Shown: positions 1,285 to 34,730, counted from the stretch's first letter. The stretch: DNA of 55,327 nt from Acidobacteriota bacterium (GCA_009841055.1 VXMN01000112.1:1-55327), one strand, 5' to 3'. Notes: generated by a model not told the origin, from the letters alone. A program made the numbers and translations.

Positions 1285-1527
1285 TCACTCGATCCGGTAG
1301 CTGAATTCCTCGATCACCGGGTTGGTCAATACGTCCCTGGCTATCTTTTCGACCTCGGCCTGAACTTCTTCCCGGGTCAGATCGGAGGCAAAGTCGATTT
1401 CGAAAAACTTCCCCTGGCGCACCTCGGTGATCTGCCGAAAGCCGATGTTCTGCAGACTGTGATGAATGGTCTTGCCCTGGGGGTCCAGAACGCTCTTTTT
1501 GAGGCTGACGTAAACTCTAGCCCGCAT
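1285..1527 (-). CDS. purS: Phosphoribosylformylglycinamidine synthase subunit PurS
   Basis: 80-aa ORF ([25 protein letters not shown]...) of typical PurS size and sequence, immediately upstream of purQ. Confidence 0.9.
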
Positions 1528-1546
1528 ATCTCACCGGGATCCTTTC

Positions 1547-2842
1547 TTACCCGCCGAAAACCCGCTCGAAAACGGCGTCCACATGGCGCAACTGGTGGTC
1601 CAGATCGAAGCTGGTTTCGATCTCGGATCGGGACAGGTACTTCAGGATTTCCTCGTCCTGAAGCACCAGGCTCTTGAATTCCGTCCCCTCCGACCACACG
1701 CGCATGGCGTTTCGCTGCACCCACCGGTAGGCCTTCTCCCGGCTGACCCCTTTTCGAGTCAGGTCGAGGAGAATCTGTCCGGAAAAGACCAGTCCCTTCA
1801 TCAAGTTCAGGTTCTCCACCATCCTGTCCGGGTAGACCAGCAGCCTTTCCAGCAGCCGGGTGGACTTGGCCAACAGGTAGTCGACCAGAATGGTTGAGTC
1901 CGGCAGAATCACGCGCTCCACCGAGGAGTGGGAAATATCCCGCTCGTGCCACAGCGTGATGTTTTCCAGGCCGGCCAGCAGGTTGGAGCGAACCACCCGG
2001 GCCAGGCCGGAGATCTGTTCGCAGGTCACGGGATTCCTCTTGTGCGGCATTGCCGAAGAACCCTTCTGCCCGGCCGAGAAGTACTCTTCCACCTCCCGGA
2101 CCTCGGTGCGCTGCAGCCCCCGGACCTCGGTGGCGATCTTCTCCAGGCTGGCGGCGATCAGGGCCAGCGCCGACAGGAACTCGGCATGGCGGTCACGTTG
2201 CACGATCTGGGTCGAGACCGGGTCGGGTTGCAGTCCCAGGATGCGGCAAACCGATTCCTCCACGGTGGGATCGAGGTGGGCAAAGGTCCCGACGGCTCCC
2301 GACAACTTCCCCACTCGCACGCATTCGGCCGCGTCCCGCAGCCGCCTCCGGTTGCGGCGAGCTTCTTCGTACCACACGGCCAGCTTGAGGCCCAGCGTGG
2401 TGGGTTCCGCATGAATCCCGTGAGTCCGTCCCACCATGACCGTTCTCTTGAACTCGTGGGCCCGCTTCTCCAGCACCTTAACGAACCGGTCCAGCCCCTC
2501 GACCAGAATTTCCGACGCTTCCTTGAGTTGCAGCGCCAGGGCCGTATCCACCACGTCGGAGGAGGTCAGACCATAGTGAACGTAGCGGGACTCCGGCCCC
2601 ACATGCTCGGCCACCGAGGTGGTGAAGGCGACCACGTCATGCTTGACCTCGCGTTCGATCTCATCGATCCGGTCCACGTCGAAGTCGGCCTTTTCCCGAA
2701 TGACCCGAGCCGCATCCCGGGGGACGACACCCCGCTCGGCCAGGACATCCGTGCAGGCCAGCTCCACTTCCAGCCACTTCCGAAACTTGTTCTCCGGAGA
2801 CCAGATCTGCCCCATGCGGGGCCGGGTATAACGTTCGATCAC
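1547..2842 (-). CDS. purB: Adenylosuccinate lyase
   Basis: 431-aa ORF with the fumarate-lyase signature GSSAMPHKRNP and a PurB-like N-terminus MIERYTRPRMGQIWS. Confidence 0.95.
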   Translation of the reverse strand: MIERYTRPRMGQIWSPENKFRKWLEVELACTDVLAERGVVPRDAARVIREKADFDVDRIDEIEREVKHDVVAFTTSVAEHVGPESRYVHYGLTSSDVVDTALALQLKEASEILVEGLDRFVKVLEKRAHEFKRTVMVGRTHGIHAEPTTLGLKLAVWYEEARRNRRRLRDAAECVRVGKLSGAVGTFAHLDPTVEESVCRILGLQPDPVSTQIVQRDRHAEFLSALALIAASLEKIATEVRGLQRTEVREVEEYFSAGQKGSSAMPHKRNPVTCEQISGLARVVRSNLLAGLENITLWHERDISHSSVERVILPDSTILVDYLLAKSTRLLERLLVYPDRMVENLNLMKGLVFSGQILLDLTRKGVSREKAYRWVQRNAMRVWSEGTEFKSLVLQDEEILKYLSRSEIETSFDLDHQLRHVDAVFERVFGG

Positions 2843-2868
2843 GGTGGGAATTCCTCCTGAAAAGCGGG

Positions 2869-3666
2869 CTAAATGCGGATGACCCTGCTCGGACCGGAGC
2901 GGGATGCCAAGAGCAGGTTTTTCGGGTCAAAGCCCTTTTTCCCCAAGGCTTTACCGGCGACCATGCGCGCGATATCGGGATGGTTGTTGTTCTCGCTCAG
3001 GTGAGCCAGCAGGATATAGGCGGCCTTTCCGTCAAAGTCTTCCTCGAAGAATTTCCCGACGCTCTCGTTGGAAAGATGGCCATGGCGACTCATGATCCGT
3101 TGCTTCACCGCCCAGGGATAGGGGCTGAGGCGCAGCATTTCCAGGTCATGGTTGGACTCCAGGACCAGCACGTCGCTCCCTGCCATGCGTTGACGCACCA
3201 AACCGGTGAGGACACCCAGATCCATCACATGAGAGATCTTGACTCCCTCGGCTTCCAGGTTGAAGGCCAGGGGATCGGCAGCATCGTGGGGAACGGAAAA
3301 CGGGGAAATCTTCAAGTCGCCAATTTGAAACGACTCTCCCGAGCGGAGGCATTCCCTCCGTTTCAGCACCGGCTTCAGCGAGAGCGCCTCGTAGGTCGCA
3401 TCTCCGACGAAGGTGAGAATATCACAGGTCTTCAGGAGCCCCGCCAGGCCCTTGACGTGGTCGCTGTGCTCGTGGGAAATGACCAGGGCATCGATGTCTT
3501 CCAGCCGTTCTCCAATGGCCAGCAGCCTCCTGGCCGTCTGAGCCCGACTGAAGCCCGCATCCAGGAGCACCTTGACTCTTCCGGTGGCAATAAAGGTACA
3601 GTTGCCGGAACTCCCGCTGCCCAGAACTGATACCGTAACCGCCACTGTTGCCCCGCCCGGCCTCAC
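2869..3666 (-). CDS. MBL-fold metallo-hydrolase (YycJ/beta-lactamase-superfamily-like)
   Basis: 265-aa ORF with the HxHxDH motif (ISHEHSDHVKG). GTG start, so the start position is uncertain. Confidence 0.8.
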   Translation of the reverse strand: MRPGGATVAVTVSVLGSGSSGNCTFIATGRVKVLLDAGFSRAQTARRLLAIGERLEDIDALVISHEHSDHVKGLAGLLKTCDILTFVGDATYEALSLKPVLKRRECLRSGESFQIGDLKISPFSVPHDAADPLAFNLEAEGVKISHVMDLGVLTGLVRQRMAGSDVLVLESNHDLEMLRLSPYPWAVKQRIMSRHGHLSNESVGKFFEEDFDGKAAYILLAHLSENNNHPDIARMVAGKALGKKGFDPKNLLLASRSGPSRVIRI

Positions 3667-6668: not shown

Positions 6669-7775
6669 ATGGCTGCTTCCAGGGGCGAGCTCTTGGGGCT
6701 GACCGAAGACGAACTGGCTGCCCTGATGGTCGATTGGGGCGAGAAACCCTATCGCGGACGCCAGCTCTACCAGGCCCTATACCGCCGAAGGCAACTGGAT
6801 CCGGGATCGATGACCGAATTCTCCAGGTCCCTCCGGCGGAAGCTTGCAAGCTGCACCATTACACTGCCCCGGCTGCATAGGCGTCAGTTGGCGGCCGACG
6901 GCACCGAGAAATACCTGCTTGAGCTGACGGACGGGGAGAAGATCGAGTGCGTCCTGATCCCTGAGCGAAAGCGCAACACCCTGTGTATTTCAACTCAGGC
7001 GGGCTGTCCTCTGGATTGCCGCTTCTGCTTGACGGCCATGTTGGGGTTCAGGCGCAACCTCGACCCGGGGGAGATCCTGGGGCAGATCCTCTACGTGCTT
7101 GGTGACAAAGACCTTGCAATGGGTTCAACGGGAGATGGCAGCCGACCCGCACTCACCAACCTGGTGCTGATGGGAATGGGCGAGCCCCTTCTCAATCTCG
7201 ACAGTGTCCTCAAGTCCCTGATCATCCTGGCCGATCCCGGAGGACTGGCTCTTTCTCCACGCAGGATCACACTGTCGACGGTGGGGCTGGTGCCCCAGTT
7301 GAGGAAACTGGCCCGGGCACCCGTAGTACCCAACCTGGCCATCTCGCTTTCCGCCACCACCGATGAGGTTCGTGACCGGCTGATGCCCGTCAACCGAAGG
7401 TATCCCATTGAGGCTGTCCTGCAGGCCTGCGCCGATTATCCTCTGAAAGGAAACCAGCGGGTGACCTTCGAGTATGTCCTCATGGACGGAGTCAATGACA
7501 GCGACGACGATGCCCGGCGGCTGGTCAAACTGCTGGCCCCCCTCCGCTCGAAGGTCAACCTGCTTCCACTGAACCCCGGCAATGCCAACGGATTGAAACC
7601 CTCGCCCCCCGATCGGGTCAAACGCTTTCGGGAGATCCTCGCCGGCAAGAGCCTGCCGGCCTATGTCCGGAAACCGAGAGGAATGGAAATCTTTGCCGCT
7701 TGCGGCCAACTGCACCTGGCGGCCGATCAATTGTCCCGAACCACCCGCACCTCGCGGCTGGACACCAACCGGTAG
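6669..7775 (+). CDS. rlmN: 23S rRNA/tRNA (adenine2503-C2)-methyltransferase RlmN (radical SAM)
   Basis: 368-aa ORF with the radical SAM cluster motif GCPLDCRFCLT and a conserved MGMGEPL segment. Confidence 0.93.
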   Translation: MAASRGELLGLTEDELAALMVDWGEKPYRGRQLYQALYRRRQLDPGSMTEFSRSLRRKLASCTITLPRLHRRQLAADGTEKYLLELTDGEKIECVLIPERKRNTLCISTQAGCPLDCRFCLTAMLGFRRNLDPGEILGQILYVLGDKDLAMGSTGDGSRPALTNLVLMGMGEPLLNLDSVLKSLIILADPGGLALSPRRITLSTVGLVPQLRKLARAPVVPNLAISLSATTDEVRDRLMPVNRRYPIEAVLQACADYPLKGNQRVTFEYVLMDGVNDSDDDARRLVKLLAPLRSKVNLLPLNPGNANGLKPSPPDRVKRFREILAGKSLPAYVRKPRGMEIFAACGQLHLAADQLSRTTRTSRLDTNR

Positions 7776-8950
7776 CGCACCCGGCGCCACACGATGGAGG
7801 AGGTAAACAGGGAGACTGCAAGATTGCAGGCGGTCAGCGTCGCCGCCAGCGGCCCCAGAAACAGGTATCCCCAAAAGTCCCGCTTGAGCCTCTCCCGCTG
7901 CTCGGGGCGGATCCGGCAAATCATTCTCCAGCGGAACAGACCGCGAACGGCGCCCAGAAACCAGACCATCCCCAACAAGAGCAGCAGCGGGGCGCCCTGC
8001 AACCAGCGGATCTCGATCGCTCCCCCCAACCCCAGGGCCGAGGCCAGCAGCTCACCCAGCGTCCACCACCAGAACAGCACGAAGGGCCACTCCGAGAGCA
8101 GCGCCAGCCTCCAGCGGCCCGGCGAGTAAACCTTGGTAATGATGATTTGCCGTGTGGACCATTCCAGCAGCTCTCTCCAGGTGCAGTCCCCATGGGAGGC
8201 CACCAGACACCGAGGTTGAAAGTGGACCCGCAGGCCCGCCGCATTCACCGCCTCCGTGAGGGAATAGTCGTCACTGATGGACTGTCGCCAATAAGCCGGG
8301 ACGTCGATTGCCGCAAAGGTCGACCGCCGGATGGCCATCGAGCCTCCCCAGGCGAAGTTGTGACGGTGCTCCCCCAACAATGTGGCTATGGAGCTGTTCC
8401 AGGTGGCCCGCAAGAGGCTGGCCAGGTTTCCCCTGCGCGGGAAGAACCACCGGTATCCGGTGGAGGCTCCCACTTGCGGGTCCCCCAAGGGCGCCAGGAG
8501 GTCCCGCAGCCAATGGCGGTGCGGCCTTCCGTCCGAGTCTGCGAAAACCAGAACCTCCGAACCCGGATCCACCTGGTCCAGCGCCCTCAGGAGGCTGTGT
8601 ACCTTCTCTCCCCGCTGGTCCGAGAGCCCGGACACCACGAACTTGACCCGCCGGCCGGGAAATTTCCGGGCCGCCCGGCGCAGGTCCGCCAGCGAGGGAT
8701 CGGACTCGGTGGAGGTCACGAAGATGACCTCGCAGTCTTCAAATTCCTGGTCCAGGATGGCTTCCATGTTCTCCTGCAACTCGAAATCGGTCCCCTTGCA
8801 GGGAACGATCACGGAAGCCGGAGGCGTCCAGACGGGGGGTGTTCGTGACAACTGGCGGTTGAGATAGCGCTGGTAGCTCAGGCTGTGCAGTGCGCCGAGC
8901 AAGCCCTTGAGGAGAACCACGCCGGCAAGAAGGAGGAAAAATAATTCCAT
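7727..8950 (-). CDS. Membrane glycosyltransferase, family 21/2-like (ceramide glucosyltransferase / HpnI-like)
   Basis: 407-aa ORF with an N-terminal TM, VIVPCKG, FADSD and ISDDY motifs, and C-terminal TM segments. Its 3' end overlaps the rlmN 3' end by 49 bp (convergent). Confidence 0.8.
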   Translation of the reverse strand: MELFFLLLAGVVLLKGLLGALHSLSYQRYLNRQLSRTPPVWTPPASVIVPCKGTDFELQENMEAILDQEFEDCEVIFVTSTESDPSLADLRRAARKFPGRRVKFVVSGLSDQRGEKVHSLLRALDQVDPGSEVLVFADSDGRPHRHWLRDLLAPLGDPQVGASTGYRWFFPRRGNLASLLRATWNSSIATLLGEHRHNFAWGGSMAIRRSTFAAIDVPAYWRQSISDDYSLTEAVNAAGLRVHFQPRCLVASHGDCTWRELLEWSTRQIIITKVYSPGRWRLALLSEWPFVLFWWWTLGELLASALGLGGAIEIRWLQGAPLLLLLGMVWFLGAVRGLFRWRMICRIRPEQRERLKRDFWGYLFLGPLAATLTACNLAVSLFTSSIVWRRVRYRLVSSREVRVVRDN

Positions 8951-8987
8951 GAAGGGGAAACTGCGGCCTCGGCTTGGGGAGACGGGG

Positions 8988-10055
8988 CTATTCCCAGCGA
9001 AAAACCTTCACCGCCGCCCAGACCGAGACGATGCTCCACAGTGCCAGACCGGCCAACTGGAGCCAGAGAGCGGGAAGAGTCGAACCTTCCAGCACAATGC
9101 TTCGCATGCCGTCGGCCAGGTAGGTCAGGGGGAAGAATTCGGTGACCAGCCGAACCGGCTCCGGCAGATTGGAGCGGCTGAAGAAAACCCCCGAGAGGAG
9201 CATCATGGGAAGCGAAACCACGTTGGCCAGGGGGACGACCTGATCTTCCGTCCTGGCGATCCCGGCCAGGAAGAAGCCGATGGCCAGGAACACGGCTCCG
9301 CCCAACAGACCCATGGCGAAAAGATCCAGCAGACTTCCCAGGAACTGCAGGTCGAAGAAGACAATCCCCACCCCTACCAGGACAACGATCTGGGTCAGCA
9401 AGACCATCAGCCGCATGGCCACCTGGGCCGCGATGAAGTCCTGGGGTCTCATGGGAGTCACCGACAGTCGGCGAAGGACCCCCCGTTTTCTGAGCGCAAC
9501 GAATCCGAAGGCCACCCCGAAAATGCCACTCTGCATGATGGCCAGGGACAGCACCCCGGGAAGCAGGAAGTCGATATAGCTGGAGCGGCGACTGGCGACC
9601 GATTGAAGGGTCATTGGGACTCGACCGGGCGCCGTATGCATCCTGAAAGTCTCATCGTCCAGCACCTTGCGCAGGATGAGCAGCCCCAACTGGGTTTCCT
9701 CCGGCGTGCCGTCATTGACCAGAACCCTCAGTTCCTTCCCGCTGGCGGCATGGAATTGCTCGGGAAGGACAAGAACCAGGTGGCGCTTGCCGGCCGTGAG
9801 CTGTTCCAGTTCGGAGCTCTCGGACCCGCGGGTGACCTGAACCGTCCGGACCTCCCCGAGCTGCCCGGCGAGCTGCCCGGCCGGCTCATCCTCCCCGCCT
9901 GCCACTCCGATCCGAATTTTCCCCAAACCCTCGAAACTGACGAATCCGAACAGGAACACCATGAAGAGCGGCAGCAACATGGTCCAGATGATGGCTTCCT
10001 TCTGTCGGGTGAACATCTTCAGAGAGGCCACCGTCAATTTCCATCGAAGCCGCAT
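8988..10055 (-). CDS. ABC-2 type transporter permease
   Basis: 355-aa ORF with one N-terminal TM, a large loop and then about 5 TMs, which is ABC-2 exporter architecture. It lies directly downstream of an ABC ATPase. Confidence 0.85.
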   Translation of the reverse strand: MRLRWKLTVASLKMFTRQKEAIIWTMLLPLFMVFLFGFVSFEGLGKIRIGVAGGEDEPAGQLAGQLGEVRTVQVTRGSESSELEQLTAGKRHLVLVLPEQFHAASGKELRVLVNDGTPEETQLGLLILRKVLDDETFRMHTAPGRVPMTLQSVASRRSSYIDFLLPGVLSLAIMQSGIFGVAFGFVALRKRGVLRRLSVTPMRPQDFIAAQVAMRLMVLLTQIVVLVGVGIVFFDLQFLGSLLDLFAMGLLGGAVFLAIGFFLAGIARTEDQVVPLANVVSLPMMLLSGVFFSRSNLPEPVRLVTEFFPLTYLADGMRSIVLEGSTLPALWLQLAGLALWSIVSVWAAVKVFRWE

Positions 10056-10061
10056 ATTGGG

Positions 10062-10823
10062 TTATTCCTCTTGCAAGGCGTGGCCGGTGAGGTGGAGAAA
10101 GACGTCTTCCAGGTTGGCCAGCCGTTCCACTCTTTCCTTCTTGAATCCGGATGCCAGGAGATCGCCGATCAGCTTTGGGGGAGGGGCGTCGGCAACGATC
10201 CTGCCCCGGTCCATGATGGCCACTCGATCGCACAACTCCTCGGCCTCTTCCATGTAATGGGTCGTCAGGACCACCGTTTTCCCCTCGGAGCGGATTCTGC
10301 GGATGACTCCCCAGAGGTGTCGTCGAGCCTGAGGGTCCAGTCCGGTGGTGGGCTCGTCCAGAAATACCAGCAGCGGATCGTTCACCAGGGCCGCGGCTAC
10401 GGAAAACCGATGCTGTTGTCCCCCCGACAACTGCTCCACCTGAGCCTTGGCGCGATCCTGCAGATCCACCTCGCTCAACAGTTGCACGGGATCGACCGAC
10501 CGGCCGTAGAGTTCTCCCAACAACAGCAGCAGTTCCCTCAGATTGAGCTTCTCGAAAAAGGAAGTCGTCTGGAGCTGAACGCCAATCCGCTGCTGAACCT
10601 GCCGGGGGTGCCTGCCGACGTCCAGCCCATCCAGAGTGACAGTTCCGGAATCGATGGGCCTCAGCGTTTCAATCATTTCCAGAGTGGAGGTCTTTCCGGC
10701 GCCGTTGGGACCGAGAATGCCGAAGATTTCCTGGCGTCGGACCGAAAAGCTGACCCGATCGACGGCGACAAGGTCTCCGTATCTCTTGCACAGGTTGTCG
10801 ACAGCCAGAATCACGGATGACAC
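10062..10823 (-). CDS. ABC transporter ATP-binding protein
   Basis: 253-aa ORF with Walker A GPNGAGKTS, signature LSGGQQHR and Walker B LVFLDEPTTGLD. Confidence 0.93.
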   Translation of the reverse strand: MSSVILAVDNLCKRYGDLVAVDRVSFSVRRQEIFGILGPNGAGKTSTLEMIETLRPIDSGTVTLDGLDVGRHPRQVQQRIGVQLQTTSFFEKLNLRELLLLLGELYGRSVDPVQLLSEVDLQDRAKAQVEQLSGGQQHRFSVAAALVNDPLLVFLDEPTTGLDPQARRHLWGVIRRIRSEGKTVVLTTHYMEEAEELCDRVAIMDRGRIVADAPPPKLIGDLLASGFKKERVERLANLEDVFLHLTGHALQEE

Positions 10824-10896
10824 TTGTCTGGAATACCCCTGTTTCGCCCCGTATGAGCCGCCTCGTGGTATGGGACGGCGGCGCGCCTAGGTAAAA

Positions 10897-11060
10897 AGTG
10901 AATAGTGGCCAGTGGTTAGTGGATAGTTATTTAATCGACACGCAAAGCGTCTTGTTGGTGTCGGCGCCGTCCTTCCCAAAAGCTCGGTCAGTTCATCAGG
11001 CATTTGCCCGCTCCCGAAGCCCTCGGCTGACCACTCTTCACTCTCCACTCTCCACTTCAG
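10897..11060. repeat. Inverted arrays of a heptad repeat (nnAGTGG x3 at 10897-10926; CCACTnn x4 at 11031-11060) around a core of about 100 bp that contains a 6-bp stem
   Basis: Read directly: agtgaatagtggccagtggttagtggatag ... cgacac-N16-gtgtcg ... ccactcttcactctccactctccacttcag. It lies in the divergent intergenic region between the ABC operon and the prolyl oligopeptidase gene. Confidence 0.6.
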
Positions 11061-11188
11061 GGATTTGAGCGGCCATTGCCCTCTAACCGACCCTGTTGTA
11101 TTTTAGTCGAAGGCGCGGGAACCCTGTCCGCAAGCCTGAACCCGAAGCAACGAAACGGACCGCGCCGTTTCCCAAAATCGGAATTCCC

Positions 11189-13399
11189 ATGAAACGCTTG
11201 CTTGCCCTCCTGGTTGTCTTGATGGCGTCACTGTCCCTGGGATGGTTGGCGGCGACGATCACGCAGCCGCCGATCCATGCCTTGGGCGCCTCGCCCGAAG
11301 ATCGTTCCCTTGCCTACCCCAAGGCCAGAAAAGCCGACCAGGTCGACCGTTACCACGGCATCGATGTCCCGGACCCCTATCGCTGGCTTGAAATTCCCGA
11401 TTCGGAAGAGACCCGTTCCTGGATTGAGGCCCAGAATTCGCTGACTTTCCGATACCTCGGCAAGATTTCCCAGCGGGCGCCAATCAGGAGAAAGCTGGAG
11501 CGGCTGTGGAACTACGAACGCTACAGCGTGCCTCGCAAGGAAGGCGGCCGCTACTTCTACCGAAAAAACGACGGTCTGCAGAACCAAAGCGTGCTCTACA
11601 CGGTGGCCGGCCTGACCGGAAAGCCGCGGGTGCTGCTGGACCCCAACCGGCTTTCCGATCAGGGGACCATCGCCCTGGCCAACTACTCCATCAGTCCTGA
11701 TGGCCGTTTCATGGCCTACGGTCTCTCAACCTCCGGTTCGGATTGGATGGAATGGAAGATTCGAGAGGTCTCGACAGGCAAGGACTTGAAAGAGAAACTG
11801 CGTTGGATCAAGTTTTCCGGAGCCTCATGGGGCCGCGACAATCGGGGATTCTACTACAGCCGCTACGACGAACCCAAGGGAACTCCCGGCCCGGCCGACA
11901 CCCACTACAATCAGAAACTCTACTACCATCGGATCGGCAGGCCCCAGTCCGAGGATGTGCTGGTGTATGAGCGTCCCGACCGGAAGGAATGGGGCTTCAG
12001 TCCCCGGGTCACCGAAGACGGGAAGTACCTGGTCATTCACGTCTGGAAGGGAACCGACAGGCGAAATCGTGTTTACATCCGGTCCCTTGAGGACGCGGCC
12101 TCGAAGGTCGTTCCCCTGCTGGACGATTTCGACGCTTCCTACCGCTTCATCGGCAACGACGGCCCTCTCTTCTGGTTCCGAACCGACCTGGAGGCCCCAC
12201 GCGGGCGGGTGATTGCGGTGGATATCCGAAGGCCGGCCCGGTCAAACCGGCGGGAAGTCATTCCCGAGATGGCCGAGACTCTGGAACAGGTGAACCTGGT
12301 CAACCATCGGTTCATTGCCACCTACCTCAAGGACGCCTACTCCCTGGTGCGGCTCTTTGGACTCGAGGGACAGCCTGCCGGCACCATTGACCTTCCCGGC
12401 CTCGGCACGGTCACCGGCTTCGACGGCAAGAAAGACGACTCGGAAACCTTTTTCGGTTTTGCCGGATTCACCACTCCCCTGACTATTTTCCACCAGAACC
12501 TCGAATCGGGTAAGCGGCAGCTCTTCCGGGAGCCGAGCGTCGACTTCGACGCCGGAGCCTATGAGACCCGGCAGGTCTTCTATCGAAGCAAGGACGGGAC
12601 CCGAATCCCGATGTTTCTGACTCACCGCAAGGGTCTTTCAAGGGAGCGGACCCACCCGACCTACCTGTACGGCTACGGGGGATTCAACATCTCCCTGACG
12701 CCTCGCTTCTCCGTCTCCAACCTGGTCTGGATGGAAATGGGGGGACTGTTGGCGATCCCCAACCTGCGGGGAGGAGGCGAGTACGGAGAAGAGTGGCACC
12801 AGGCCGGGACCAAGGAAAACAAACAGAACGTTTTCGATGACTTCATTGCGGCCGCCGAATGGCTGATCCGGCACGAATACACCCGTCCTTCCCAATTGGC
12901 CATCGGCGGCCGCAGCAATGGAGGACTGCTGGTGGGAGCCGTCATGACCCAGCGGCCGGAACTGTTCGGTGCGGCCCTGCCGGGAGTCGGGGTTCTGGAC
13001 ATGCTGCGTTTCCAGAAATTCACCATCGGATGGGCCTGGGTATCGGATTACGGCTCCTCGGATGATCCCGATCAGTTCAAGGCGCTGCTGGCATATTCCC
13101 CGCTTCACAACCTTCGATCCGGCGCCCGCTATCCGCCCACCCTCATCACCACCGCCGACCACGACGACCGGGTGGTGCCGGCCCACAGCTACAAGTTCGC
13201 GGCTGCCCTGCAGGACGCCCAGGCGGGAGACGCACCGGTGCTCATCCGCATCGAGACCCAGGCGGGCCACGGAGCCGGCAAGCCCATCAGCAAGGTCATC
13301 GAGGAAGTGGCCGATCAATGGGGCTTCCTGGTCCACACCCTGAAGATGGACCTGTCCGATCTGGAGACGGCGGACTCCTCCCGGACCGGAAAGAACTGA
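11189..13399 (+). CDS. Prolyl oligopeptidase (S9A family), secreted or membrane-anchored
   Basis: ORF 11096..13399 trimmed to ATG 11189 (MKRLLALLVVLMASLSLGWLAA, a signal-like segment). It has a beta-propeller N-domain and a catalytic GGRSNGG serine motif plus DDRV and a C-terminal H. Confidence 0.9.
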   Translation: MKRLLALLVVLMASLSLGWLAATITQPPIHALGASPEDRSLAYPKARKADQVDRYHGIDVPDPYRWLEIPDSEETRSWIEAQNSLTFRYLGKISQRAPIRRKLERLWNYERYSVPRKEGGRYFYRKNDGLQNQSVLYTVAGLTGKPRVLLDPNRLSDQGTIALANYSISPDGRFMAYGLSTSGSDWMEWKIREVSTGKDLKEKLRWIKFSGASWGRDNRGFYYSRYDEPKGTPGPADTHYNQKLYYHRIGRPQSEDVLVYERPDRKEWGFSPRVTEDGKYLVIHVWKGTDRRNRVYIRSLEDAASKVVPLLDDFDASYRFIGNDGPLFWFRTDLEAPRGRVIAVDIRRPARSNRREVIPEMAETLEQVNLVNHRFIATYLKDAYSLVRLFGLEGQPAGTIDLPGLGTVTGFDGKKDDSETFFGFAGFTTPLTIFHQNLESGKRQLFREPSVDFDAGAYETRQVFYRSKDGTRIPMFLTHRKGLSRERTHPTYLYGYGGFNISLTPRFSVSNLVWMEMGGLLAIPNLRGGGEYGEEWHQAGTKENKQNVFDDFIAAAEWLIRHEYTRPSQLAIGGRSNGGLLVGAVMTQRPELFGAALPGVGVLDMLRFQKFTIGWAWVSDYGSSDDPDQFKALLAYSPLHNLRSGARYPPTLITTADHDDRVVPAHSYKFAAALQDAQAGDAPVLIRIETQAGHGAGKPISKVIEEVADQWGFLVHTLKMDLSDLETADSSRTGKN

Positions 13400-14769: not shown

Positions 14770-14877
14770 TGTTACGTTTTCAATTGCGACGAACGGCTTG
14801 CCCGCGTGTTTTGCATGGATAACGCCGCAGGTGGATCCCACGGATGCTCACCACATGTTACCGAGGCTTGACACAGT

Positions 14878-14921
14878 GCTTGCTGGAAGGTAAACCACTA
14901 CTGTGATACGGTTTTCTTCAG
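14878..14921 (+). promoter_or_regulatory. Conserved 44-nt leader/operator-like element, copy 1, upstream of the membrane-protein/MotA/DUF2149 operon
   Basis: gcttgctggaaggtaaaccactactgtgatacggttttcttcag is 37/44 identical to the reverse complement of 21257-21300. It can fold as an imperfect hairpin (CUgGAAGgUAAACC / GGUUUUCUUCAG) with loop ACUACUGUGAUAC. Confidence 0.5.
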
Positions 14922-14986
14922 GGCCAGGATCGCGCGAAACCATGCGTCCGCTACATCTGCCGTAGGGAATCCACCTCACAGCAGCA

Positions 14987-15619
14987 GTGCTATCGTTAGA
15001 ATGGACCGGGGCGGCGGGGCACGCGCCGAAACGTGGAGGTTCTCATTTGCTAATCCACACCGTAGCACAACTGTGTGGCTTGGCTGCCGTGGTCTTCGCC
15101 ACTGCATCGCGGGGCCGTCGCGGGGTTGCCGCACTCTCTGCGGGCTTCTTGTGCGGGCTTGGATTGCCGGTTCCATCTCCAGGATGGACAGGCGCGCTTG
15201 TCGCGGCCATGGCAGTGCTGGTGCTCATTGATTTGCGCTCCCAGGCGACCGCGCTCGCCGGCCCGCTGGCGTCCGGGATGACTGGTGGACTGTGCGCACA
15301 GATGCTTGCCAGCCACGGGATGGCAACTTGGCTGGCGTGGCCGCTCGTGGCGGGCTTTGTCGCGGCATCGGCTGTTGCGTCGCAGCGCAACCCTCGATTC
15401 GCTCGGCGGGAGATCCGCGAGGACGCGCTGGCAGCGCTCGCAGCGCTGGGCTTGGCCGTCGCCGCCGCGCCAAGCGTGGCAGCGGGTTGGCGCACGGCGG
15501 GAGTAATGAACCTTGCGGCCAATGACTTGGCTCGACCGGGGCCGAACTCGGGTCTACTATTGGGCGTCGCGGCTGTCGTTGTGCTCGGAGGCCTGCATAG
15601 GTTCTGGAGGCGTGCATGA
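14987..15619 (+). CDS. Polytopic Ala/Gly-rich integral membrane protein, hypothetical (possibly a DUF2162-type predicted transporter)
   Basis: 210-aa ORF from GTG 14987. A better start is TTG 15047, which is preceded by GGAGG at 15035-15039. It has about 5-6 hydrophobic segments. The stop overlaps the next start (ATGA). Confidence 0.65.
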   Translation: MLSLEWTGAAGHAPKRGGSHLLIHTVAQLCGLAAVVFATASRGRRGVAALSAGFLCGLGLPVPSPGWTGALVAAMAVLVLIDLRSQATALAGPLASGMTGGLCAQMLASHGMATWLAWPLVAGFVAASAVASQRNPRFARREIREDALAALAALGLAVAAAPSVAAGWRTAGVMNLAANDLARPGPNSGLLLGVAAVVVLGGLHRFWRRA

Positions 15620-16263
15620 ACTTCCTCGGAATTCTTGAGAACGGCCTGTTCGCCTTGGCCCAAGTGCTCCGCCTACCCGTGATCGCCATGCTCTGGGTTG
15701 CGGTTGGCACCGTATTCTTCATGACCGGTGCGTGTGTCATGGATTGCTTGGCGCGGCGGCGAGAGTACGACGGCTTCGATCTCAGCGCGTGGCTCGATGC
15801 AGGTCCGCTGCTTGGCATCGATGGCGCGCGGCTGGAGGCATTGCCCACGCCGCTTCGGGGGATGCTGCGCGATGTCGAGACTGAGCGAAAGAGGCTGGGG
15901 CTTGCTGACGGCGGCTTGGAGCACCTCGTTCTCGAACGGGAGGAGCGAGTGCGCCGCACACTGAACCGGTCGCGCTTGCTGGTCAGGGTTGGTCCGAGCT
16001 TGGGCTTGCTGGGCACCCTCATCCCGATGGGGGCGGCCTTGGCGTCGCTGACGGCCGGCAACCTCGAGGCGATGGCGGGACAAATGGTCGTCGCCTTCAC
16101 CACCACCATCGTCGGTCTCGCGACGGGGACGGTAGCCTACGTCATTCAGAGCGTGCGCCAAAGATGGGTTAGCGAGACCGTGCGCGAGCAGCGATTCCTA
16201 GCCGAGCGTCTCGCCGCGGAACTGACACACGATGCGCGCGGCACCCCCGCGCCGGAGGATTAG
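15616..16263 (+). CDS. MotA/TolQ/ExbB-family proton channel protein
   Basis: 215-aa ORF with the conserved C-terminal core VGPSLGLLGTLIPMG ... MVVAFTTTIVGLATG. It is translationally coupled to both neighbours. Confidence 0.85.
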   Translation: MNFLGILENGLFALAQVLRLPVIAMLWVAVGTVFFMTGACVMDCLARRREYDGFDLSAWLDAGPLLGIDGARLEALPTPLRGMLRDVETERKRLGLADGGLEHLVLEREERVRRTLNRSRLLVRVGPSLGLLGTLIPMGAALASLTAGNLEAMAGQMVVAFTTTIVGLATGTVAYVIQSVRQRWVSETVREQRFLAERLAAELTHDARGTPAPED

Positions 16264-16264
16264 G

Positions 16265-16597
16265 ATGGCACGTTTCCTGCACCTGAATTCAACAGCCGAC
16301 GCTGAGGCCGAGGACCCTCTCTCGGGAATTACGAACATCTTCGACATCTCGGTGGTCTTCATCGTCGGCCTGATGATGACTCTCTTCTCCGTGTATCGTA
16401 TCGGCGACCTCGTCGATCCGGAAAGCCAGGTGACGCTGGTCAAGACCAACGCAAACGGCTTGCAAGAGATCATCGTCAAGCAGGGCACCGAGATTACCGC
16501 GTACGAGCTCACAGGCGAGACACTCGGCGGGCAGGGCGAGCGCCTCGGCACCGCCTATCGGCTGGCCGACGGGCAGATCATCTACGTCCCGGACTGA
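16265..16597 (+). CDS. DUF2149-like small membrane-anchored protein (ExbD-position analogue)
   Basis: ORF 16232..16597 trimmed to ATG 16265, with GGAGG 7 nt upstream. The N-terminal acidic region is followed by one TM (ITNIFDISVVFIVGLMMTLFSV) and a soluble tail. The DUF2149 assignment is from memory. Confidence 0.7.
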   Translation: MARFLHLNSTADAEAEDPLSGITNIFDISVVFIVGLMMTLFSVYRIGDLVDPESQVTLVKTNANGLQEIIVKQGTEITAYELTGETLGGQGERLGTAYRLADGQIIYVPD

Positions 16598-16896
16598 GCG
16601 GATCGCCGCTCGGACCGACCGTATATTCTGGAACCAACAAGGGAAGCCGACGGCACCGTAGCGGTGCCAGCTTCGGATGGGTCGGCAGTACCGATAGCTC
16701 GACTCGGGGTGATGAAATTGGCTTCGATCCAGGGCCTGTCCTCTCCCGCCGTCACCCGGCACGCCCGACGCCCCGGTGCGAGGCTAGCATTCAAGTGATG
16801 CCCCTGAGGGACAGGGAGCATCTGCCTGACAGTCCGCCCTTGGAAACTGAGGGCCGCTTACGGCCGCTTTCGGTCTGGCCAGTTGCCTTTGGTGGC

Positions 16897-19800
16897 TCAT
16901 GATCTGCCCCTATCAAGCCGCCGCTGCCTGCGCCAAGCGGCGAGCAGCCCCAGGAGCGGAAGGCCCACCCAAAGCGGAGACCATTCATCGGGCTCCGGAC
17001 TTGCTGCCGGCAGGTTCGGGGCCGGACCGCTCGCGCTTGCAGTCTCCTGCATGCGATAGCCCTTGATGCCGGTCAGCGCCGGTGCGGCTGTCCCCGCCTC
17101 GTTGCGGCGGACGAACTCCTCTACTGCAGCCGCGGCTTCCTCGATGTCGACACCAAGCGCCTCCTGCATCGCCTCTCGGTACGCCTGAAGAGCGGGGCCG
17201 GGAATGTTCAGCGCCGCGCCCTGCTCCAGCACGTAGCGCAAGAGTCTCGGATTGCCGCAAGTGTGGGACGCACAGCCGACGCCGTGCTTGGCGACGCTCT
17301 CGACATGTTCTTGGAGCAAGCGCTCGGCTGTCGCGTCATCGGCCGCCCAATAGCCCTTGCGGATCGTCTCAACCATCCGGCCGGTGATGTCTTGATACGC
17401 GTGGGGCGAGTACTCCTCAAAGAAGGTCTTCAGGTCCAGTCGGTGCCTGTCCTCGACGTACACGGCGAATGACTCGTTCCACATCGCATCGTCGACAGTC
17501 TCGGGCACAGCAGCGTCCCAGCCCCACAGGTACTCGACGAACGCGCGCATCTCGCCGGCACCGGCGTAGCCCTCGCTCTGCATCCCTTCGATCCAAGTGG
17601 GGTTGACGTAGCGCGTCCGGAACTCCGAGCCGATGAACTCGTGGATCCCGGTCATCTCGGGTCGGCTGGGGTCGCGGGTGTTGGCGACGACCATCTGCGG
17701 GCTCTCACCGTCAATGCTCCTGACGGCGGCCGCGAGCCCGCCCATGTACATGAAGAAGTCGTCGTTGTCCAATGCGCCGTAGAGCATCGTGGAGCTACTG
17801 TGCACCACCTTGGCGGTGCCGGAGAGCGCCAAGCGAAACGCATCCTCCATCGGTTCGCCCCAGAACCCGTTGCCGTAGCCGTGCCCCATCTTCGACAAAT
17901 ACTCGTCCGCCATTGGCCGGTCGCTGTCCCAAGTGCCGCTCGCAGCGGCGATGCGCGATGTGTTCAAATTGAAGCTGCCGGGCGGCTCCTGGAAGATTCG
18001 GACGCCGGCGCGCCGGTCGGCTTCCTCGTCCGCGTAACCGCGCCCGATCAGCGCCGCCTTCGTCGCCAGGTAGTGGCGGCGCACGTAGTTGTCCGCCTCC
18101 TCCATTACCTTGACCCGCTGGACCGCCTCGTCCATCAGCCGGGTCACGTTGCTGAACATTCCCGTCGCAGTCGAGGCAATGACGACGTCCACGCGGGGCC
18201 GGCCGAGCTGGCTCGACGGAACGACATCCACTCCTACCACCTTCCCGCGGGCATCCCAGACCGGGCGCGTTCCGAGCAAGTGAAAGATCTGCGATTCCAG
18301 AATCCCTTCGTGCCGCAGAGTTTCGTCGGCCCAGATCACGAAAGACACCTTCTCGGGATATCCTCCGTGCTCTGCGACATGGTCTGCCAGCATCTGCTCG
18401 GCCAAGTCGACGCCGAGCTTCCAGGCAGCCGGCTTCGGCACCTTCTCAGGGTCGATGCCGTAGAAGTTCTTGCCGGTAGGATACGAATCCGGGTTGCGGA
18501 TCGGCTCCCCGCCGCCACCCACCGGAATGTAACCGCCGTCGAGAGCACGCAACAAGTGATCGAGTTCCCGAGGGCCGGACTCGACGATGCGCCGCTCCAT
18601 CTCCGACGCCCGGACCGTGGCGTCGTTCGGCAGGAGGCTCCGGTCCACGGAGACAATCGCCTCGACCGTGCTTGCTCGCATTTCCGGGCCCGGGACCCGA
18701 CCGAAGGCATGCAGGCCGTACGGCATGTTCTGCCCCCGCAGCTCGATCAGGTAGTCCTCGATGGCATGAACCGACTCGTGCGGGATCTCCGGGCCGCTTC
18801 CGAGGTCGATTCCGAGGTCCTTGACCATTCCCAGGTCCGTCGCCTGGCGCCGGATCTGATCGGCGTACGCCTCGGTCATTTGCACGCTCTTGTGGACGTT
18901 GGTGTGATAGTCATCGACGCTTTCTCCGAGGGCAGCCAGCGCGGGCAGCAACTCGCTGGTTCTGAACGGCGGCACCATGTGATCCACCAGAGCCGCCATG
19001 CCGCGGCGACGCGCTACCAGCCCTTCGCCCACGACGTCTACGTTGTACACGTACAGGTTGGGCAGGTCGCCGACCAGTGCATCTGGAGCGTCGTTCTCCG
19101 AGAGACCCAGGTCCTTGCCTTCAAGCCACTCGAGCGTCCCGTGCGTGCCGAGGTGAATCAACGCGTCCGCGCCAAACCCGGCGGGCTGATCCGCTTTCAG
19201 CCAAGAATAGGCAGCAACGTACTGGTGGTGCGGCGCGAGAGCCGTCGCGTGGTACAGCTTCTCAGCGTCCTCGGACCAACCCCGCGCGGGCTGAGGCATT
19301 AAGACGATGTTGCCGTAGTGCACCGCCGGTATGACGAAGCCGCCGTCCCTCGCCATCACACCGGAGTCCGCAGGGTCGCCCCAGTCGGCTACAACCTTGG
19401 CGCGGAAGGCCGGCGGGAAACCGTTAAACCAACGCAGGTAATCGCTTAACGGCACCCGAGCCGCCCCACCCTCCTCGATCAGCGCATCCAGTTCGCCCGG
19501 CGCGTACCCTGCGACATTGCGGGCGCGGTCCGAGATCGCCGCCATCACCGCTCCGGGCGACAGATCGACCCCGGCGCCTCCAACATCGTAGCCGGCCAAC
19601 AGCATCCGCCGCAGGATGTTCGAGATCGACTCCGCGACATTCAGGTAGCTGGCGCCGATGGTGGCTTTGCCCGGAGGGTAGTTGTAAAAGAGCAGCGCGA
19701 CGCGCTTGTTGGCGTTGGGCGTCGCCGCCAGCGACGCATAGGCAATGGCCCGCTGGACTGCCGTCGTCACGCGGGCAGCCAGCGGTTGGGAGACAACGAC

Positions 19801-20949
19801 AGCCATCCCGGTGCCCGGGTCTGTACGGCGCTCCCGGCTGCCGACCACGGTCGGCGCCACGAGCCCGGCCAGTTCCGGCACGAATACTTGAAAGGTCCCT
19901 TCGAACAACGACAGCCCCTGTGGTGACGCACGCCACTCGGCCTCGCTTCGCCCGTAGAGCGAAATCAGACTGAGCACCGGTATGCCCAACTGGCCGAGTG
20001 ATTTGCTCGCCTTCGGGTCGGCGAAGCGGAACATAAACGTCAGCGCGACGTCGGCCCGCACGACGCCGTCGGCACCGCGCAGCAAGGAATTGAATGTCTC
20101 CCCTGCCGGATAACCGAAGATCGGGATTGCTTCGGCCCCCTGCCGCTCGATTTCGGCGATCACCGAGTCAATGAGAACGGTGTCGCCATGGTGGAGTTTC
20201 GCCCCGTAGAAACCGATCGCGACACGCGGCGCTCCGGGACGGAGTTTGCCCGCACGCCGCCGCCAGCGGTCGAACGTCTCCCAGGTGGCGAAGGCGCGGC
20301 CGCTCAGCACTCCCCGGTCTTCGTTCTCCGCCCCGGGGTGGTAGTAGCCAGCCTCAAGGCTCGGCCGCGGGTCGGCCGCAGAGAGACCCGGAATGCCCGC
20401 CGCGGAGAGAACGTGCTTGAGCAGCCCCGCCTGGTTTGCAACGCCAGCGTGGCGCCAGAACTCGCGGGCGCGCTCGTCCCATGTCGCACCAAGCGCGACG
20501 TAGTGCTCGCGGGGCAGCAGCCCGTCGTCAACGGGCAGCACCAAGCCGTTCACGGCGACACGGCGGATGAGGTCGACGCCGTGCTCGTCGTCGAACCGTT
20601 CCAGCGCCAGGTGATCCAGAGTGTTGACGATCAGCACATCGCTCGCCAGAACATCCTCGGGATCGACCTCGTCGAACAGCGACTCAGTCAGCAGCGTCAA
20701 CGCGACGCGTTCGCGGAGATCGGGACGCTCGTGGACCACCGCCCGCCAGGCGCTCAGTATGCCCGGCACCGTGGCATCGAGCGTGACATAACAGATCCGC
20801 ACAGTTTGTGCGCTAGCTGGGCTGGAGGCCGCGCCGACCGCCAGCCAGAGGAGCGAGACAGCAATGCCGCCCAAGAGACAGCGGATACAGGTCGATGGAG
20901 AACGGGCCACAGTTCCTTCCCCTGTGCCTCCCGATGCAGGACTGTGCAC
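16897..20949 (-). CDS. cobN: CobN/BchH-family chelatase large subunit homologue with a predicted signal peptide and a C-terminal PEP-CTERM-like anchor
   Basis: 1350-aa ORF with CobN/Mg-chelatase-H hallmarks (LIHLGTHGTLEWLEGK, PNLYVYNVD, VVHSSSTMLYGALDNDDFF). The N-terminus ...CLLGGIAVSLLWLAVGAASSPASAQT is signal-like. The C-terminus is SPEPDEWSPLWVGLPLLGLLAAWRRQRR. The start is GTG at 20949 or an internal GTG at 20910. Confidence 0.9.
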   Translation of the reverse strand: MHSPASGGTGEGTVARSPSTCIRCLLGGIAVSLLWLAVGAASSPASAQTVRICYVTLDATVPGILSAWRAVVHERPDLRERVALTLLTESLFDEVDPEDVLASDVLIVNTLDHLALERFDDEHGVDLIRRVAVNGLVLPVDDGLLPREHYVALGATWDERAREFWRHAGVANQAGLLKHVLSAAGIPGLSAADPRPSLEAGYYHPGAENEDRGVLSGRAFATWETFDRWRRRAGKLRPGAPRVAIGFYGAKLHHGDTVLIDSVIAEIERQGAEAIPIFGYPAGETFNSLLRGADGVVRADVALTFMFRFADPKASKSLGQLGIPVLSLISLYGRSEAEWRASPQGLSLFEGTFQVFVPELAGLVAPTVVGSRERRTDPGTGMAVVVSQPLAARVTTAVQRAIAYASLAATPNANKRVALLFYNYPPGKATIGASYLNVAESISNILRRMLLAGYDVGGAGVDLSPGAVMAAISDRARNVAGYAPGELDALIEEGGAARVPLSDYLRWFNGFPPAFRAKVVADWGDPADSGVMARDGGFVIPAVHYGNIVLMPQPARGWSEDAEKLYHATALAPHHQYVAAYSWLKADQPAGFGADALIHLGTHGTLEWLEGKDLGLSENDAPDALVGDLPNLYVYNVDVVGEGLVARRRGMAALVDHMVPPFRTSELLPALAALGESVDDYHTNVHKSVQMTEAYADQIRRQATDLGMVKDLGIDLGSGPEIPHESVHAIEDYLIELRGQNMPYGLHAFGRVPGPEMRASTVEAIVSVDRSLLPNDATVRASEMERRIVESGPRELDHLLRALDGGYIPVGGGGEPIRNPDSYPTGKNFYGIDPEKVPKPAAWKLGVDLAEQMLADHVAEHGGYPEKVSFVIWADETLRHEGILESQIFHLLGTRPVWDARGKVVGVDVVPSSQLGRPRVDVVIASTATGMFSNVTRLMDEAVQRVKVMEEADNYVRRHYLATKAALIGRGYADEEADRRAGVRIFQEPPGSFNLNTSRIAAASGTWDSDRPMADEYLSKMGHGYGNGFWGEPMEDAFRLALSGTAKVVHSSSTMLYGALDNDDFFMYMGGLAAAVRSIDGESPQMVVANTRDPSRPEMTGIHEFIGSEFRTRYVNPTWIEGMQSEGYAGAGEMRAFVEYLWGWDAAVPETVDDAMWNESFAVYVEDRHRLDLKTFFEEYSPHAYQDITGRMVETIRKGYWAADDATAERLLQEHVESVAKHGVGCASHTCGNPRLLRYVLEQGAALNIPGPALQAYREAMQEALGVDIEEAAAAVEEFVRRNEAGTAAPALTGIKGYRMQETASASGPAPNLPAASPEPDEWSPLWVGLPLLGLLAAWRRQRRLDRGRS

Positions 20950-21256
20950 TGCTCAGCCAGGGCGGCAATCAGGCAGGCAAGCTAAAGCCTACTGCCCGTG
21001 CCTCCAACCCCGAGCGGACTCTGGAAGGCATGTGGACTCCGCGCCGACTCGCAGCCGTCAAGGAAGCGGCGGCATCGCACGGACATCCGTAGCGCATGAC
21101 TGGTCAATGATACCGGAGGCTTTCGAGCCTTTTGCAAGAATCTGGAGGCAACGGTTTCTTGGTGAGATGCCAGGCTGGGTAGAAACAAGTTCACTCGCCG
21201 TTAAATGATGGAAATTACCGAACAAGCCATCTTGGCAACGGAATGCGGACTTGTCG

Positions 21257-21300
21257 CTGAAAAACACCGTATCACATTTTAGGTTCACCTTCCAGCAAGC
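21257..21300 (-). promoter_or_regulatory. Conserved 44-nt leader/operator-like element, copy 2, upstream of the cobN-like gene
   Basis: The reverse complement gcttgctggaaggtgaacctaaaatgtgatacggtgtttttcag is 37/44 identical to 14878-14921. It has the same orientation relative to its downstream gene as copy 1. Confidence 0.5.
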
Positions 21301-21506
21301 GCCGGTTTGGTTCCCCACCCAAAATCCGGTCTTGATTCCGCGGGAAAGGTTAGGGTAATCTCTGGGTAGTTGTCCATGGCTGGTGCGTCGTGCGGCGTCC
21401 CAACCATCCTGCCAAGTCCTCACGCAATCTGCTTCAGGCGGTCGAGAATCCTGCAGGGACCAGGCAAGCCTTGGCCCGCATTTCTCACCGGGTCGCTGGA
21501 AACATC

Positions 21507-34729: not shown

Positions 34730-34730
34730 A

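Follow-up and report, generated by a model that had tools for sequence, protein, structure and literature searches.

The window analysed here, a 55,327-nt stretch of DNA from an Acidobacteriota bacterium (VXMN01000112.1, assembly GCA_009841055.1), carries a four-gene module in which a CobN/ChlH-family protein (hereafter CobN-like), predicted to be exported, is accompanied by a MotA/TolQ/ExbB-family proton channel, a single-pass DUF2149 protein and a polytopic membrane protein, hereafter X. Our preferred reading, to which we give a probability of roughly one half, is that this periplasm-facing module of the Hmu/BtuS type handles cobalt or a corrinoid complex in the periplasm, probably by extracting the metal. 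The module itself is of the known Hmu/BtuS kind, and what is new is a cobamide- or cobalt-linked variant in Acidobacteriota and Proteobacteria with a novel protein in the slot preceding MotA.

The four genes lie where an initial annotation of this DNA had put them, as seen from their open reading frames (ORFs) and from matches to the Pfam families PF01618, PF09919 and PF02514. They form two convergent transcription units, three coupled genes on the plus strand facing one gene on the minus strand (Table 1). The translational coupling described earlier is also present, with the MotA/ExbB gene overlapping the X gene by ATGA and a TAG-G-ATG junction between MotA and DUF2149. This gene set is far beyond chance, and all four genes are under purifying selection, with ratios of nonsynonymous to synonymous substitution rates (dN/dS) of 0.14-0.35 against two close relatives. 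The statement that no AAA+ partner lies in the window was upheld: neither ChlI/ChlD nor CobS/CobT was found among the window ORFs scanned with Pfam, a scan which took in the larger ORFs only, so that small genes may have escaped. No BtuFCD-type genes were found in the same scan. An ORF at 34043-34882 had no Pfam match, and the CbiX(S) previously reported near 34.7 kb was thus not confirmed, one ORF having been tried. Among the neighbour genes of related loci, greedy ORF clustering returned no recurrent ChlI/ChlD or CobS/CobT family. This clustering remained imperfect after a first all-against-all run had been polluted by antisense ORFs in GC-rich DNA, and the absence of ChlI/ChlD is therefore to be read as "no recurrent family", short of proof.

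Counted from the GTG at 20910, the CobN-like protein has 1337 amino acids (aa), the same as its homologues. It has hundreds of relatives at 55-97% identity, and those that carry a name are labelled "cobaltochelatase subunit CobN"; it scored under the cut-offs of all nine NCBIfam CobN/BchH equivalog models (best 799 bits against a cut-off of 1248). The CobN-Mg_chel domain (PF02514) is present with the His of HxGTHG, the Glu of GEG and the Asp residues of D-x-D-D, so the fold and CobN's motifs are shared with the cytoplasmic CobNST and ChlHID enzymes. Residues H603, E642 and D1063/D1064 align with CobN H554, E593 and D1100/D1101, of which H554, E593 and D1100 were reported to bind Co2+ (bioRxiv 10.64898/2026.07.21.739949). 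The metal-site motif of the window protein is LDNDDFFMYMGG, of the LDNDD type, and its counterpart in CobN is DSDDYxQYxGG; judged from this alignment, LDNDDFFMYMGG is the cobaltochelatase form of the motif. D-x-D-D was found in 35 of 40 aligned CobN-like proteins linked to DUF2149, as well as in the homologues from Geobacter lovleyi and Runella slithyformis. The use of D-N-D-D as a cobalt-specific mark was considered and rejected: the Runella protein, which stands in a nickel context, has the same motif, and D-x-D-D therefore marks the exported group in general and not cobalt.

The CobNST and ChlHID enzymes differ from the window protein in being cytoplasmic and in having AAA+ and VWA partners, where the protein described here appears to be exported and anchored, with a proton channel instead. 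Export, as proposed in the initial annotation, is supported by a Sec-type signal at the N-terminus (…LLWLAVGAASSPASA/QT) and, in 115 of 118 full-length homologues, by a hydrophobic N-terminal stretch that carries an AxA site. The C-terminus ends in a short hydrophobic helix followed by RRQRR, and the corresponding anchor motif, W-x-P-LWVGxPLLGLLAxW-RRRR, is conserved throughout the clade. Signal and anchor are also found in the G. lovleyi, Runella and HmuS proteins. A PEP-CTERM sorting signal at the C-terminus was rejected, as the PEP of the window protein is not conserved in homologues and there was no NCBIfam match. These features show a homologue of the catalytic subunit of class I chelatases that is predicted to be secreted and to be held by its C-terminal helix at the outer face of the inner membrane. 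Its full-length identity is 38% with the G. lovleyi protein and 35% with the Runella protein; with HmuS, the identity is 30% and restricted to the C-terminal half.

To follow the module across genomes, one genome per species was taken, giving 80 loci with CobN-like relatives. They span Acidobacteriota (mostly Vicinamibacterales, from which the window probably derives), Gammaproteobacteria (Steroidobacteraceae) and Alphaproteobacteria (Sphingomonadales, among them the isolate Aurantiacibacter flavus). The order X, MotA, DUF2149, CobN-like is kept on one strand in about 70 of the 80, which bears out the proposed co-conservation of the four genes, and X is co-located with MotA in 62. When the count was restricted to the 42 loci flanked on either side by 9 kb or more (the full-flank subset), MotA and DUF2149 were each present in 40, X in 35 and a TonB-dependent receptor within the flanks in 37, the receptor being no more than 3.5 kb from the module in 33. 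The earlier remark that there is no TonB-dependent receptor is true for the 55-kb window, in which an iterated receptor hidden Markov model (HMM) run over all ORFs of at least 60 aa found none, but the window is atypical of its relatives in this respect. A second set consisted of 80 metagenome loci chosen by DUF2149 alone, of which 67 were informative. The CobN-like gene adjoins DUF2149 in 66 of these 67, downstream of it in 61, and is thus tracked by DUF2149 more tightly than by the receptor.

The link to cobalt comes from cobalamin riboswitches. An intact Rfam cobalamin riboswitch lies directly 5' of the CobN-like gene in a 79% relative (L001/L003), and one lies directly 5' of the module's receptor gene in L009, L017, L042, L056, L058, L069 and L076. 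A direct cobalamin riboswitch on the receptor or chelatase gene is found in 8 of the 80 genome loci, in addition to L084 and G. lovleyi. The first of these, a 90% relative with the convergent layout of the window, has two riboswitches, one before the CobN-like gene and the other before a receptor-BtuF-BtuF-BtuC-BtuD-CbiA operon (two Peripla_BP_2 proteins, a FecCD permease, an ABC ATPase and a CbiA-type protein). Two further cobalamin riboswitches, in L057 (15279-15479) and L061 (3861-3984), were excluded from the count as they control neighbouring genes for class I (B12-independent) ribonucleotide reductase; since they adjoin the module, the module has further B12-regulon members as neighbours in Gammaproteobacteria.

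Neither Rfam (E<=10) nor a covariance model of our own (E<=1) detected a riboswitch in the window. The leader of the CobN-like gene aligns to the intact L001 riboswitch at the equivalent place (Table 1), with 39 of 60 invariant positions retained and about half of the B12-box positions changed, and on this alignment it is a decayed riboswitch. A partial riboswitch-like match was also seen in L014 (15291-15423, minus strand; 65 bits with our own model, under the Rfam gathering score), which may be a second case of riboswitch decay.

Among known systems, the BtuS family (Bacteroides fragilis BtuS1 and BtuS2), as summarised in PMC6460266, was proposed in 2003 by Rodionov as a third kind of CobN relative with a role in metalloporphyrin salvage. 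Hmu-like operons preceded by cobalamin riboswitches were later noted in Bacteroides (PMC10100974). BtuS and the clade described here are alike in that both form a third type of CobN homologue encoded away from cob operons, with TonB-dependent receptors and B12 elements, and in being predicted to be periplasmic and membrane-attached. The BtuS examples are from Bacteroidota, whereas this clade is found in Acidobacteriota and Proteobacteria with its own X and a downstream lipoprotein, U396; the comparison with BtuS1 is by description only. A CobN homologue outside the cob operon, a receptor and a cobalamin riboswitch are found together in the relatives L001/L003, L009, L017, L042, L056, L058, L069, L076, L084 and L085. 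The window copy, unlike BtuS-type clusters, has lost its receptor and retains only a relic of the riboswitch.

A closely similar arrangement is found on plasmid pSZ77 of G. lovleyi (Trichlorobacter; Glov_3667-3675, L085), where receptor, slot protein, MotA, DUF2149 and CobN-like follow in the same order and the chelatase has the LDNDD motif, signal and anchor of the window protein and is under cobalamin riboswitch control. The operon sits amid cobamide genes, and the G. lovleyi genome is without CobS/CobT (PMC3403914). It differs in that the slot is occupied by DUF2162 and that the operon adds a canonical ExbB-ExbD-TonB set and a second receptor. In L085 (4176-4642 and 12633-14158), tandem cobalamin riboswitches stand before receptor-DUF2162-MotA-DUF2149-CobN, with the canonical ExbB-ExbD-TonB in the same operon.

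Two other relatives are tied to different metals. In Pseudomonas aeruginosa, PA1922-PA1925 encode a receptor, a CobN-like protein, a MotA/ExbB-like protein and DUF2149; the operon is strongly induced by zinc limitation as part of the Zur regulon (PMC4542158, PMC9431628), and cellular cobalt rises upon its induction (PMC4542158). Compared by description, it resembles the module in having the four gene types in one operon and differs in being zinc-regulated, in having no slot protein and in placing the chelatase gene ahead of the motor genes. On plasmid pRUNSL01 of R. slithyformis (L086, 3968-12002), a receptor, a NicO-like slot protein (HX4DH), MotA, DUF2149 and a CobN-like protein lie inside an hypABF...hypCDE hydrogenase-maturation cluster, which points to a nickel-dedicated version.

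The best-studied relative is the hmuYRSTUV operon of Bacteroidota, which comprises the genes for HmuY and a TonB-dependent receptor, a CobN-like protein (HmuS), a hypothetical membrane protein (HmuT), a MotA/ExbB protein (HmuU) and a DUF2149 protein (HmuV) (PMC11681262, PMC10434189). In 2025, HmuS of Bacteroides thetaiotaomicron was shown to be a heme de-chelatase that is bound to the membrane and directed to the periplasm, and its structure was solved by cryo-electron microscopy at 2.6 Å (PDB 9d26); given a reductant, the purified protein de-chelates heme in the absence of HmuTUV (PMC12583661). Together with the Zur regulation of PA1922-25 (PMC4542158), this supersedes the view in the initial annotation that no such system had been characterised experimentally. 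In the literature, HmuU and HmuV are assigned to the receptor by assumption and HmuT, HmuU and HmuV are called uncharacterised (PMC12583661, PMC13227078); of these two, the 2026 Porphyromonas gingivalis study did not exclude an effect of HmuT/U/V on HmuS activity (PMC13227078). The hmu operon and the window module share an exported, anchored CobN-family protein, the order polytopic protein, MotA/ExbB, DUF2149, and no AAA+ partner, and a CarboxypepD_reg-Plug TonB-dependent receptor is common to the hmu operon and the relatives of the window. In hmu, however, the chelatase gene comes before T-U-V, where here it comes after or is convergent; HmuY is present; HmuT is not detectably related to X; and regulation is by iron, in contrast to the B12 regulation of the window's relatives.

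The proton channel of the window scored 47.9 bits against PF01618 (gathering cut-off 22.9) and aligns to transmembrane helices 2 and 3 of ExbB, residues 139-195, with GPSLGLLGTLIPMG and AFTTT helices conserved in its clade. The DUF2149 protein covers the full PF09919 profile (1-92) at 93.3 bits, the gathering cut-off being 27.1. Clade profiles of the two proteins matched Bacteroides HmuU and HmuV (L083) at E 1.7e-36 and E 3.5e-29, respectively. Like ExbB-ExbD, TolQ-TolR and MotA-MotB, the pair thus combines a MotA_ExbB channel with a single-pass partner whose transmembrane helix, with a conserved N-x-F-(D/E), carries an acidic residue at the position equivalent to ExbD Asp25, an alignment which is weak and covers the transmembrane helix only (hhalign probability 0.9%). 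Unlike ExbD, DUF2149 has no detectable homology beyond this helix, and the ExbD family PF02472 was not matched. A single-sequence AlphaFold2 (AF2) model of low confidence (predicted local distance difference test, pLDDT, 63) has one helix followed by five beta-strands, and Foldseek with this model returned nothing significant, with ExbD/TolR not in the top 50. DUF2149 therefore probably works like ExbD, yet is not an ExbD member by sequence, and its periplasmic part, unlike that of ExbD, is all-beta in the prediction.

Canonical ExbB/ExbD was found in 0 of 82 genome loci and, among the metagenome loci, ExbD in 2/80 and ExbB in 4/80, which is too rare for their co-occurrence to decide the client of the motor. 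The gene families that recur in the loci did not include a TonB gene. In L087, a 97% relative of the window, a canonical ExbB-ExbD-ExbD set lies about 7 kb from the module (1488-3091), so this lineage has ordinary Ton energisers besides MotA-DUF2149.

The remaining member, X, is a polytopic inner-membrane protein whose 36 database homologues nearly all have the same length as X itself. Its family comprises 162 cluster representatives, about 190 aa long, and very few of their residues are invariant. The membrane protein is not DUF2162, against which the initial annotation had proposed to check it: X had no Pfam or NCBIfam match, in Pfam not even at E<=10, none of 41 family members matched DUF2162 (PF09930) or any other Pfam family, and the profile-profile probability of X against DUF2162 was 1-2%. 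A relationship of X to HmuT, DUF2162 or the NicO-like protein of Runella was rejected after non-significant results in hmmsearch, phmmer and hhalign. The AF2 model has seven helices (pLDDT 68), and its comparison with PDB folds gave generic helical bundles only (best E 0.08, TM-score <=0.45). X therefore represents, as far as these profile searches reach, an unclassified family and a novel slot protein. When the slot 5' of MotA was tallied in 50 of the metagenome loci selected by DUF2149, it was occupied by DUF2162 in 19, by the X family in 15, by the end of a receptor gene with no slot protein in nine, by the end of the CobN-like gene in three and by another or no Pfam family in four. The statement in the initial annotation that DUF2149, DUF2162 and MotA_ExbB accompany cobN homologues is thus correct in that all three travel with cobN paralogues, but DUF2162 does so in other lineages and not here.

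Several other genes recur around the module. U396, a 396-aa lipoprotein with beta-propeller-like repeats, is encoded downstream of the chelatase gene in 46 genome loci, for example L002 (11951-13141) and L019 (13834-15108), and W-x-D-x-R-D-G-N-x-E-[IV]-Y motifs are repeated in it. No Pfam family covers it; it has weak matches to the CylK propeller and TIGR04275, and is probably a beta-propeller; by analogy with HmuY or BtuG, it may be a ligand-capture partner. Seed searches did not find it in the window. PepSY_TM proteins, DUF6152 and a secreted 302-aa protein (U302) are also recurrent near the module in relatives. The PepSY_TM membrane proteins, which have a weak cytochrome b561 match, lie near the module in L007 (4063-5313) and 12 other loci, and could be an electron source for de-chelation of the HmuS type.

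In our preferred reading, a tetrapyrrole or chelate with cobalt in it would be imported by an outer-membrane receptor whose gene would lie elsewhere in the genome. In the periplasm, the anchored CobN-like protein would bind the imported complex without ATP and strip the metal or hand it on, as the cobalt counterpart, by analogy, of heme de-chelation by HmuS, and the product would cross the inner membrane via X or another carrier. The MotA-DUF2149 pair would form an ExbB/ExbD-like stator converting proton flow into mechanical work. Its likeliest client would be an inner-membrane complex (the anchored chelatase and/or X), in which it would take the place of the AAA+ motor, and not TonB and the receptor only. 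A tentative and somewhat doubtful extension, in line with the initial annotation and attractive as a testable hypothesis, is that the pair is a stator dedicated to the anchored CobN-like protein, with proton-motive force replacing the AAA+ motor, by which cobalt (iron, nickel or zinc in the sister clades) would be pulled from tetrapyrrole-type chelates in the ATP-free periplasm. A client in the inner membrane is favoured by the persistence of the four genes under purifying selection without an adjacent receptor, by the way DUF2149 tracks the chelatase in the metagenome loci (66/67), by the presence of a canonical ExbB-ExbD-TonB in the G. lovleyi operon as well, by the fact that DUF2149 shares only the transmembrane Asp with ExbD, and by an AAA+ partner not being among the recurrent gene families of the loci.

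Several points weigh against this reading. The substrate was inferred from regulation alone, and the riboswitch is direct in a minority of loci (8 of 80). The D-N-D-D type of chelatase is also found in a nickel context, in the hyp cluster of Runella. Cobalt is kinetically very inert in corrins, and true corrinoid de-chelation may be hard. The homologous P. aeruginosa module is zinc-regulated (PMC4542158). As purified HmuS works without HmuTUV (PMC12583661), a motor is not strictly required for the chemistry. With a receptor in 37 of the 42 full-flank loci, the co-occurrence is accounted for about equally well by the conventional view of a motor that powers the receptor. Finally, the riboswitch of the window is dead and there is no receptor nearby, so the present-day role here may have shifted.

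Another possibility, which we consider unlikely but worth weighing, is that the module takes up a metal ion (Co2+, possibly Ni2+ or Zn2+) and no tetrapyrrole, in which case the CobN-like protein would be a periplasmic chaperone between the receptor and X as the permease, and MotA-DUF2149 would be the receptor's energiser. The Runella version, which lies in a hyp (nickel) cluster and has a NicO-like nickel permease where X stands here, would fit such a role, as would the small secreted His-rich proteins (DUF6152, U302) and PepSY_TM reductase-like proteins near the module in relatives. The cobalamin riboswitches can be counted in its favour too, as cobalt transporters are commonly under their control. 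In P. aeruginosa, the homologous module belongs to the Zur regulon and cobalt rises on induction (PMC4542158), and the literature places HmuU and HmuV with the receptor (PMC12583661). However, the sole member with biochemistry acts on a metallo-tetrapyrrole (PMC12583661), conserved polar residues in X are very few for a metal permease, and the co-regulated receptor operon of L084 includes genes for a BtuFCD-like transporter, of a type that is typical for the import of corrinoids or chelates. An energiser of the receptor also sits poorly with DUF2149 following the CobN-like gene more tightly than the receptor does.

It is improbable that the window protein is a true HmuS orthologue, that is, a periplasmic heme de-chelatase harvesting heme iron with X, MotA and DUF2149 as HmuT, HmuU and HmuV. 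HmuS is the top solved-structure match (9d26; 453 bits with the single sequence and 562 bits with the clade profile), the partner order T-U-V and the export and anchor topology are the same, and HmuS His538 and Glu577 are retained in the window protein. These scores are nonetheless barely over those of CobN (7c6o; 434 and 545 bits), and the identity to HmuS is just 30%, in the C-terminal half. Moreover, the features that define HmuS fail. All 680 reference HmuS sequences have a methionine-rich insertion in domain IV, with a minimum of 22 residues, and HmuS is further defined by the Site-1 heme ligands Met-79 plus His-254 as well as by LSLDHxxEFMGG with His-1209 and Glu-1212 (PMC12583661). In the window protein the insertion is absent, HmuS residues ~700-920 being unmatched where the query goes from residue 766 to 781 in the alignment. 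In an N-terminal alignment of low confidence, Phe takes the place of His-254 in all 24 aligned clade members; at Met-79 the window protein has Leu, and 16 of the 24 have Met. As LDNDDFFMYMGG replaces LSLDHxxEFMGG, His-1209 becomes Asp and Glu-1212 becomes Met. The six genes of hmuYRSTUV are represented in the window by homologues of HmuU and HmuV only, without HmuY or receptor and with X unrelated to HmuT, and the relatives are regulated by a cobalamin riboswitch, not by iron. On these comparisons, the window protein is not HmuS proper.

The full-length HmuS used here was stitched from three reading frames of the Bacteroides locus L083 (1405 aa against 1469 in the reference), and HmuS numbering past residue 577 is therefore shifted. 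The hmuS gene of that locus (7195-11415) is split over three reading frames, and the best 120 database matches to the C-terminal fragment of HmuS were all incomplete gene calls, 500-800 aa long. Many assemblies appear to carry HmuS in fragments, a feature already noted for the original B. thetaiotaomicron genome.

The window module is bracketed by a 56-nt inverted repeat, each arm lying upstream of an inward-facing transcription unit. Its 34-nt core occurs in the window only at the two arms, with 0 expected by chance. L087 has matching arms (9611-9671 and 15979-16039; repeat 56-61 nt), and the block that is 96% identical between the window and L087 runs from arm to arm (14864-21301), with the two contigs diverging past the arm on the chelatase side; L084 is without the arms. 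No transposase was found at the arms, no target-site duplication was seen by eye, and a sigma-70 promoter scan gave no convincing site inside the arms. The arms could be a duplicated operator/promoter replacing riboswitch control, or the ends of a non-autonomous cassette. In the mechanism preferred here, the duplicated 56-nt element may supply new regulation after riboswitch decay. That rearrangement or transfer of an inverted-repeat cassette cut the module from its receptor and riboswitch, leaving a stranded remnant whose original role is lost in this genome, would agree with the decayed riboswitch, with the receptor, beta-propeller lipoprotein and BtuFCD not found in 55 kb, with the breakpoint against L087 exactly at one of the arms bracketing the module and with the housekeeping genes that surround it, but is hardly likely given that the four ORFs are intact, that dN/dS is 0.18-0.34 for the four genes between both riboswitch-less copies, that translational coupling is preserved and that a receptor may be encoded elsewhere in the genome.

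Table 1. Positions of the module genes, the riboswitch relic and the repeat arms in the window
Feature	Position	Strand	Details
X	ORF 14987-15619, probable start TTG 15047	+	190 aa; start 7 bases after GGAGG
MotA/TolQ/ExbB-family proton channel (HmuU homologue)	15616-16263	+	215 aa; PF01618 E 1.4e-12
DUF2149 single-pass protein (HmuV homologue)	16265-16597	+	110 aa; PF09919 E 1.2e-26
CobN/ChlH-family protein, predicted exported with C-terminal anchor	ORF 16897-20949, probable start GTG 20910	-	PF02514 E 6e-295
Decayed cobalamin riboswitch relic, leader of CobN-like gene	20960-21100	-	nhmmer E 9e-6 against L001
Inverted repeat, left arm, 114 nt upstream of X	14878-14933	.	56-nt repeat, arms 79% complementary
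Inverted repeat, right arm, 335 nt upstream of CobN-like start	21245-21300	.	56-nt repeat

To summarise, exported CobN-like proteins with MotA and DUF2149 are found across phyla and under at least four metal regimes, namely iron/heme in Bacteroidota, zinc in Pseudomonas, a nickel context in Runella, and B12/cobalt here and in Geobacter; within this exported group, the biochemistry is that of HmuS only. The acidobacterial and proteobacterial clade is large, with hundreds of clusters, and retains a metal site of the cobaltochelatase type; over the loci examined, 10 have a cobalamin riboswitch directly before the receptor or chelatase gene. The "cobaltochelatase subunit CobN" labels given by annotation pipelines mislead the reconstruction of the B12 pathway in soil Acidobacteriota. 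The window provides an example of riboswitch decay in which the module has been re-bracketed by a duplicated 56-nt element. Two questions are made testable by this module: whether bacteria salvage cobalt outside the cytoplasm from corrinoids or other cobalt chelates, and whether a proton motor can substitute for the AAA+ engine of class I chelatases.

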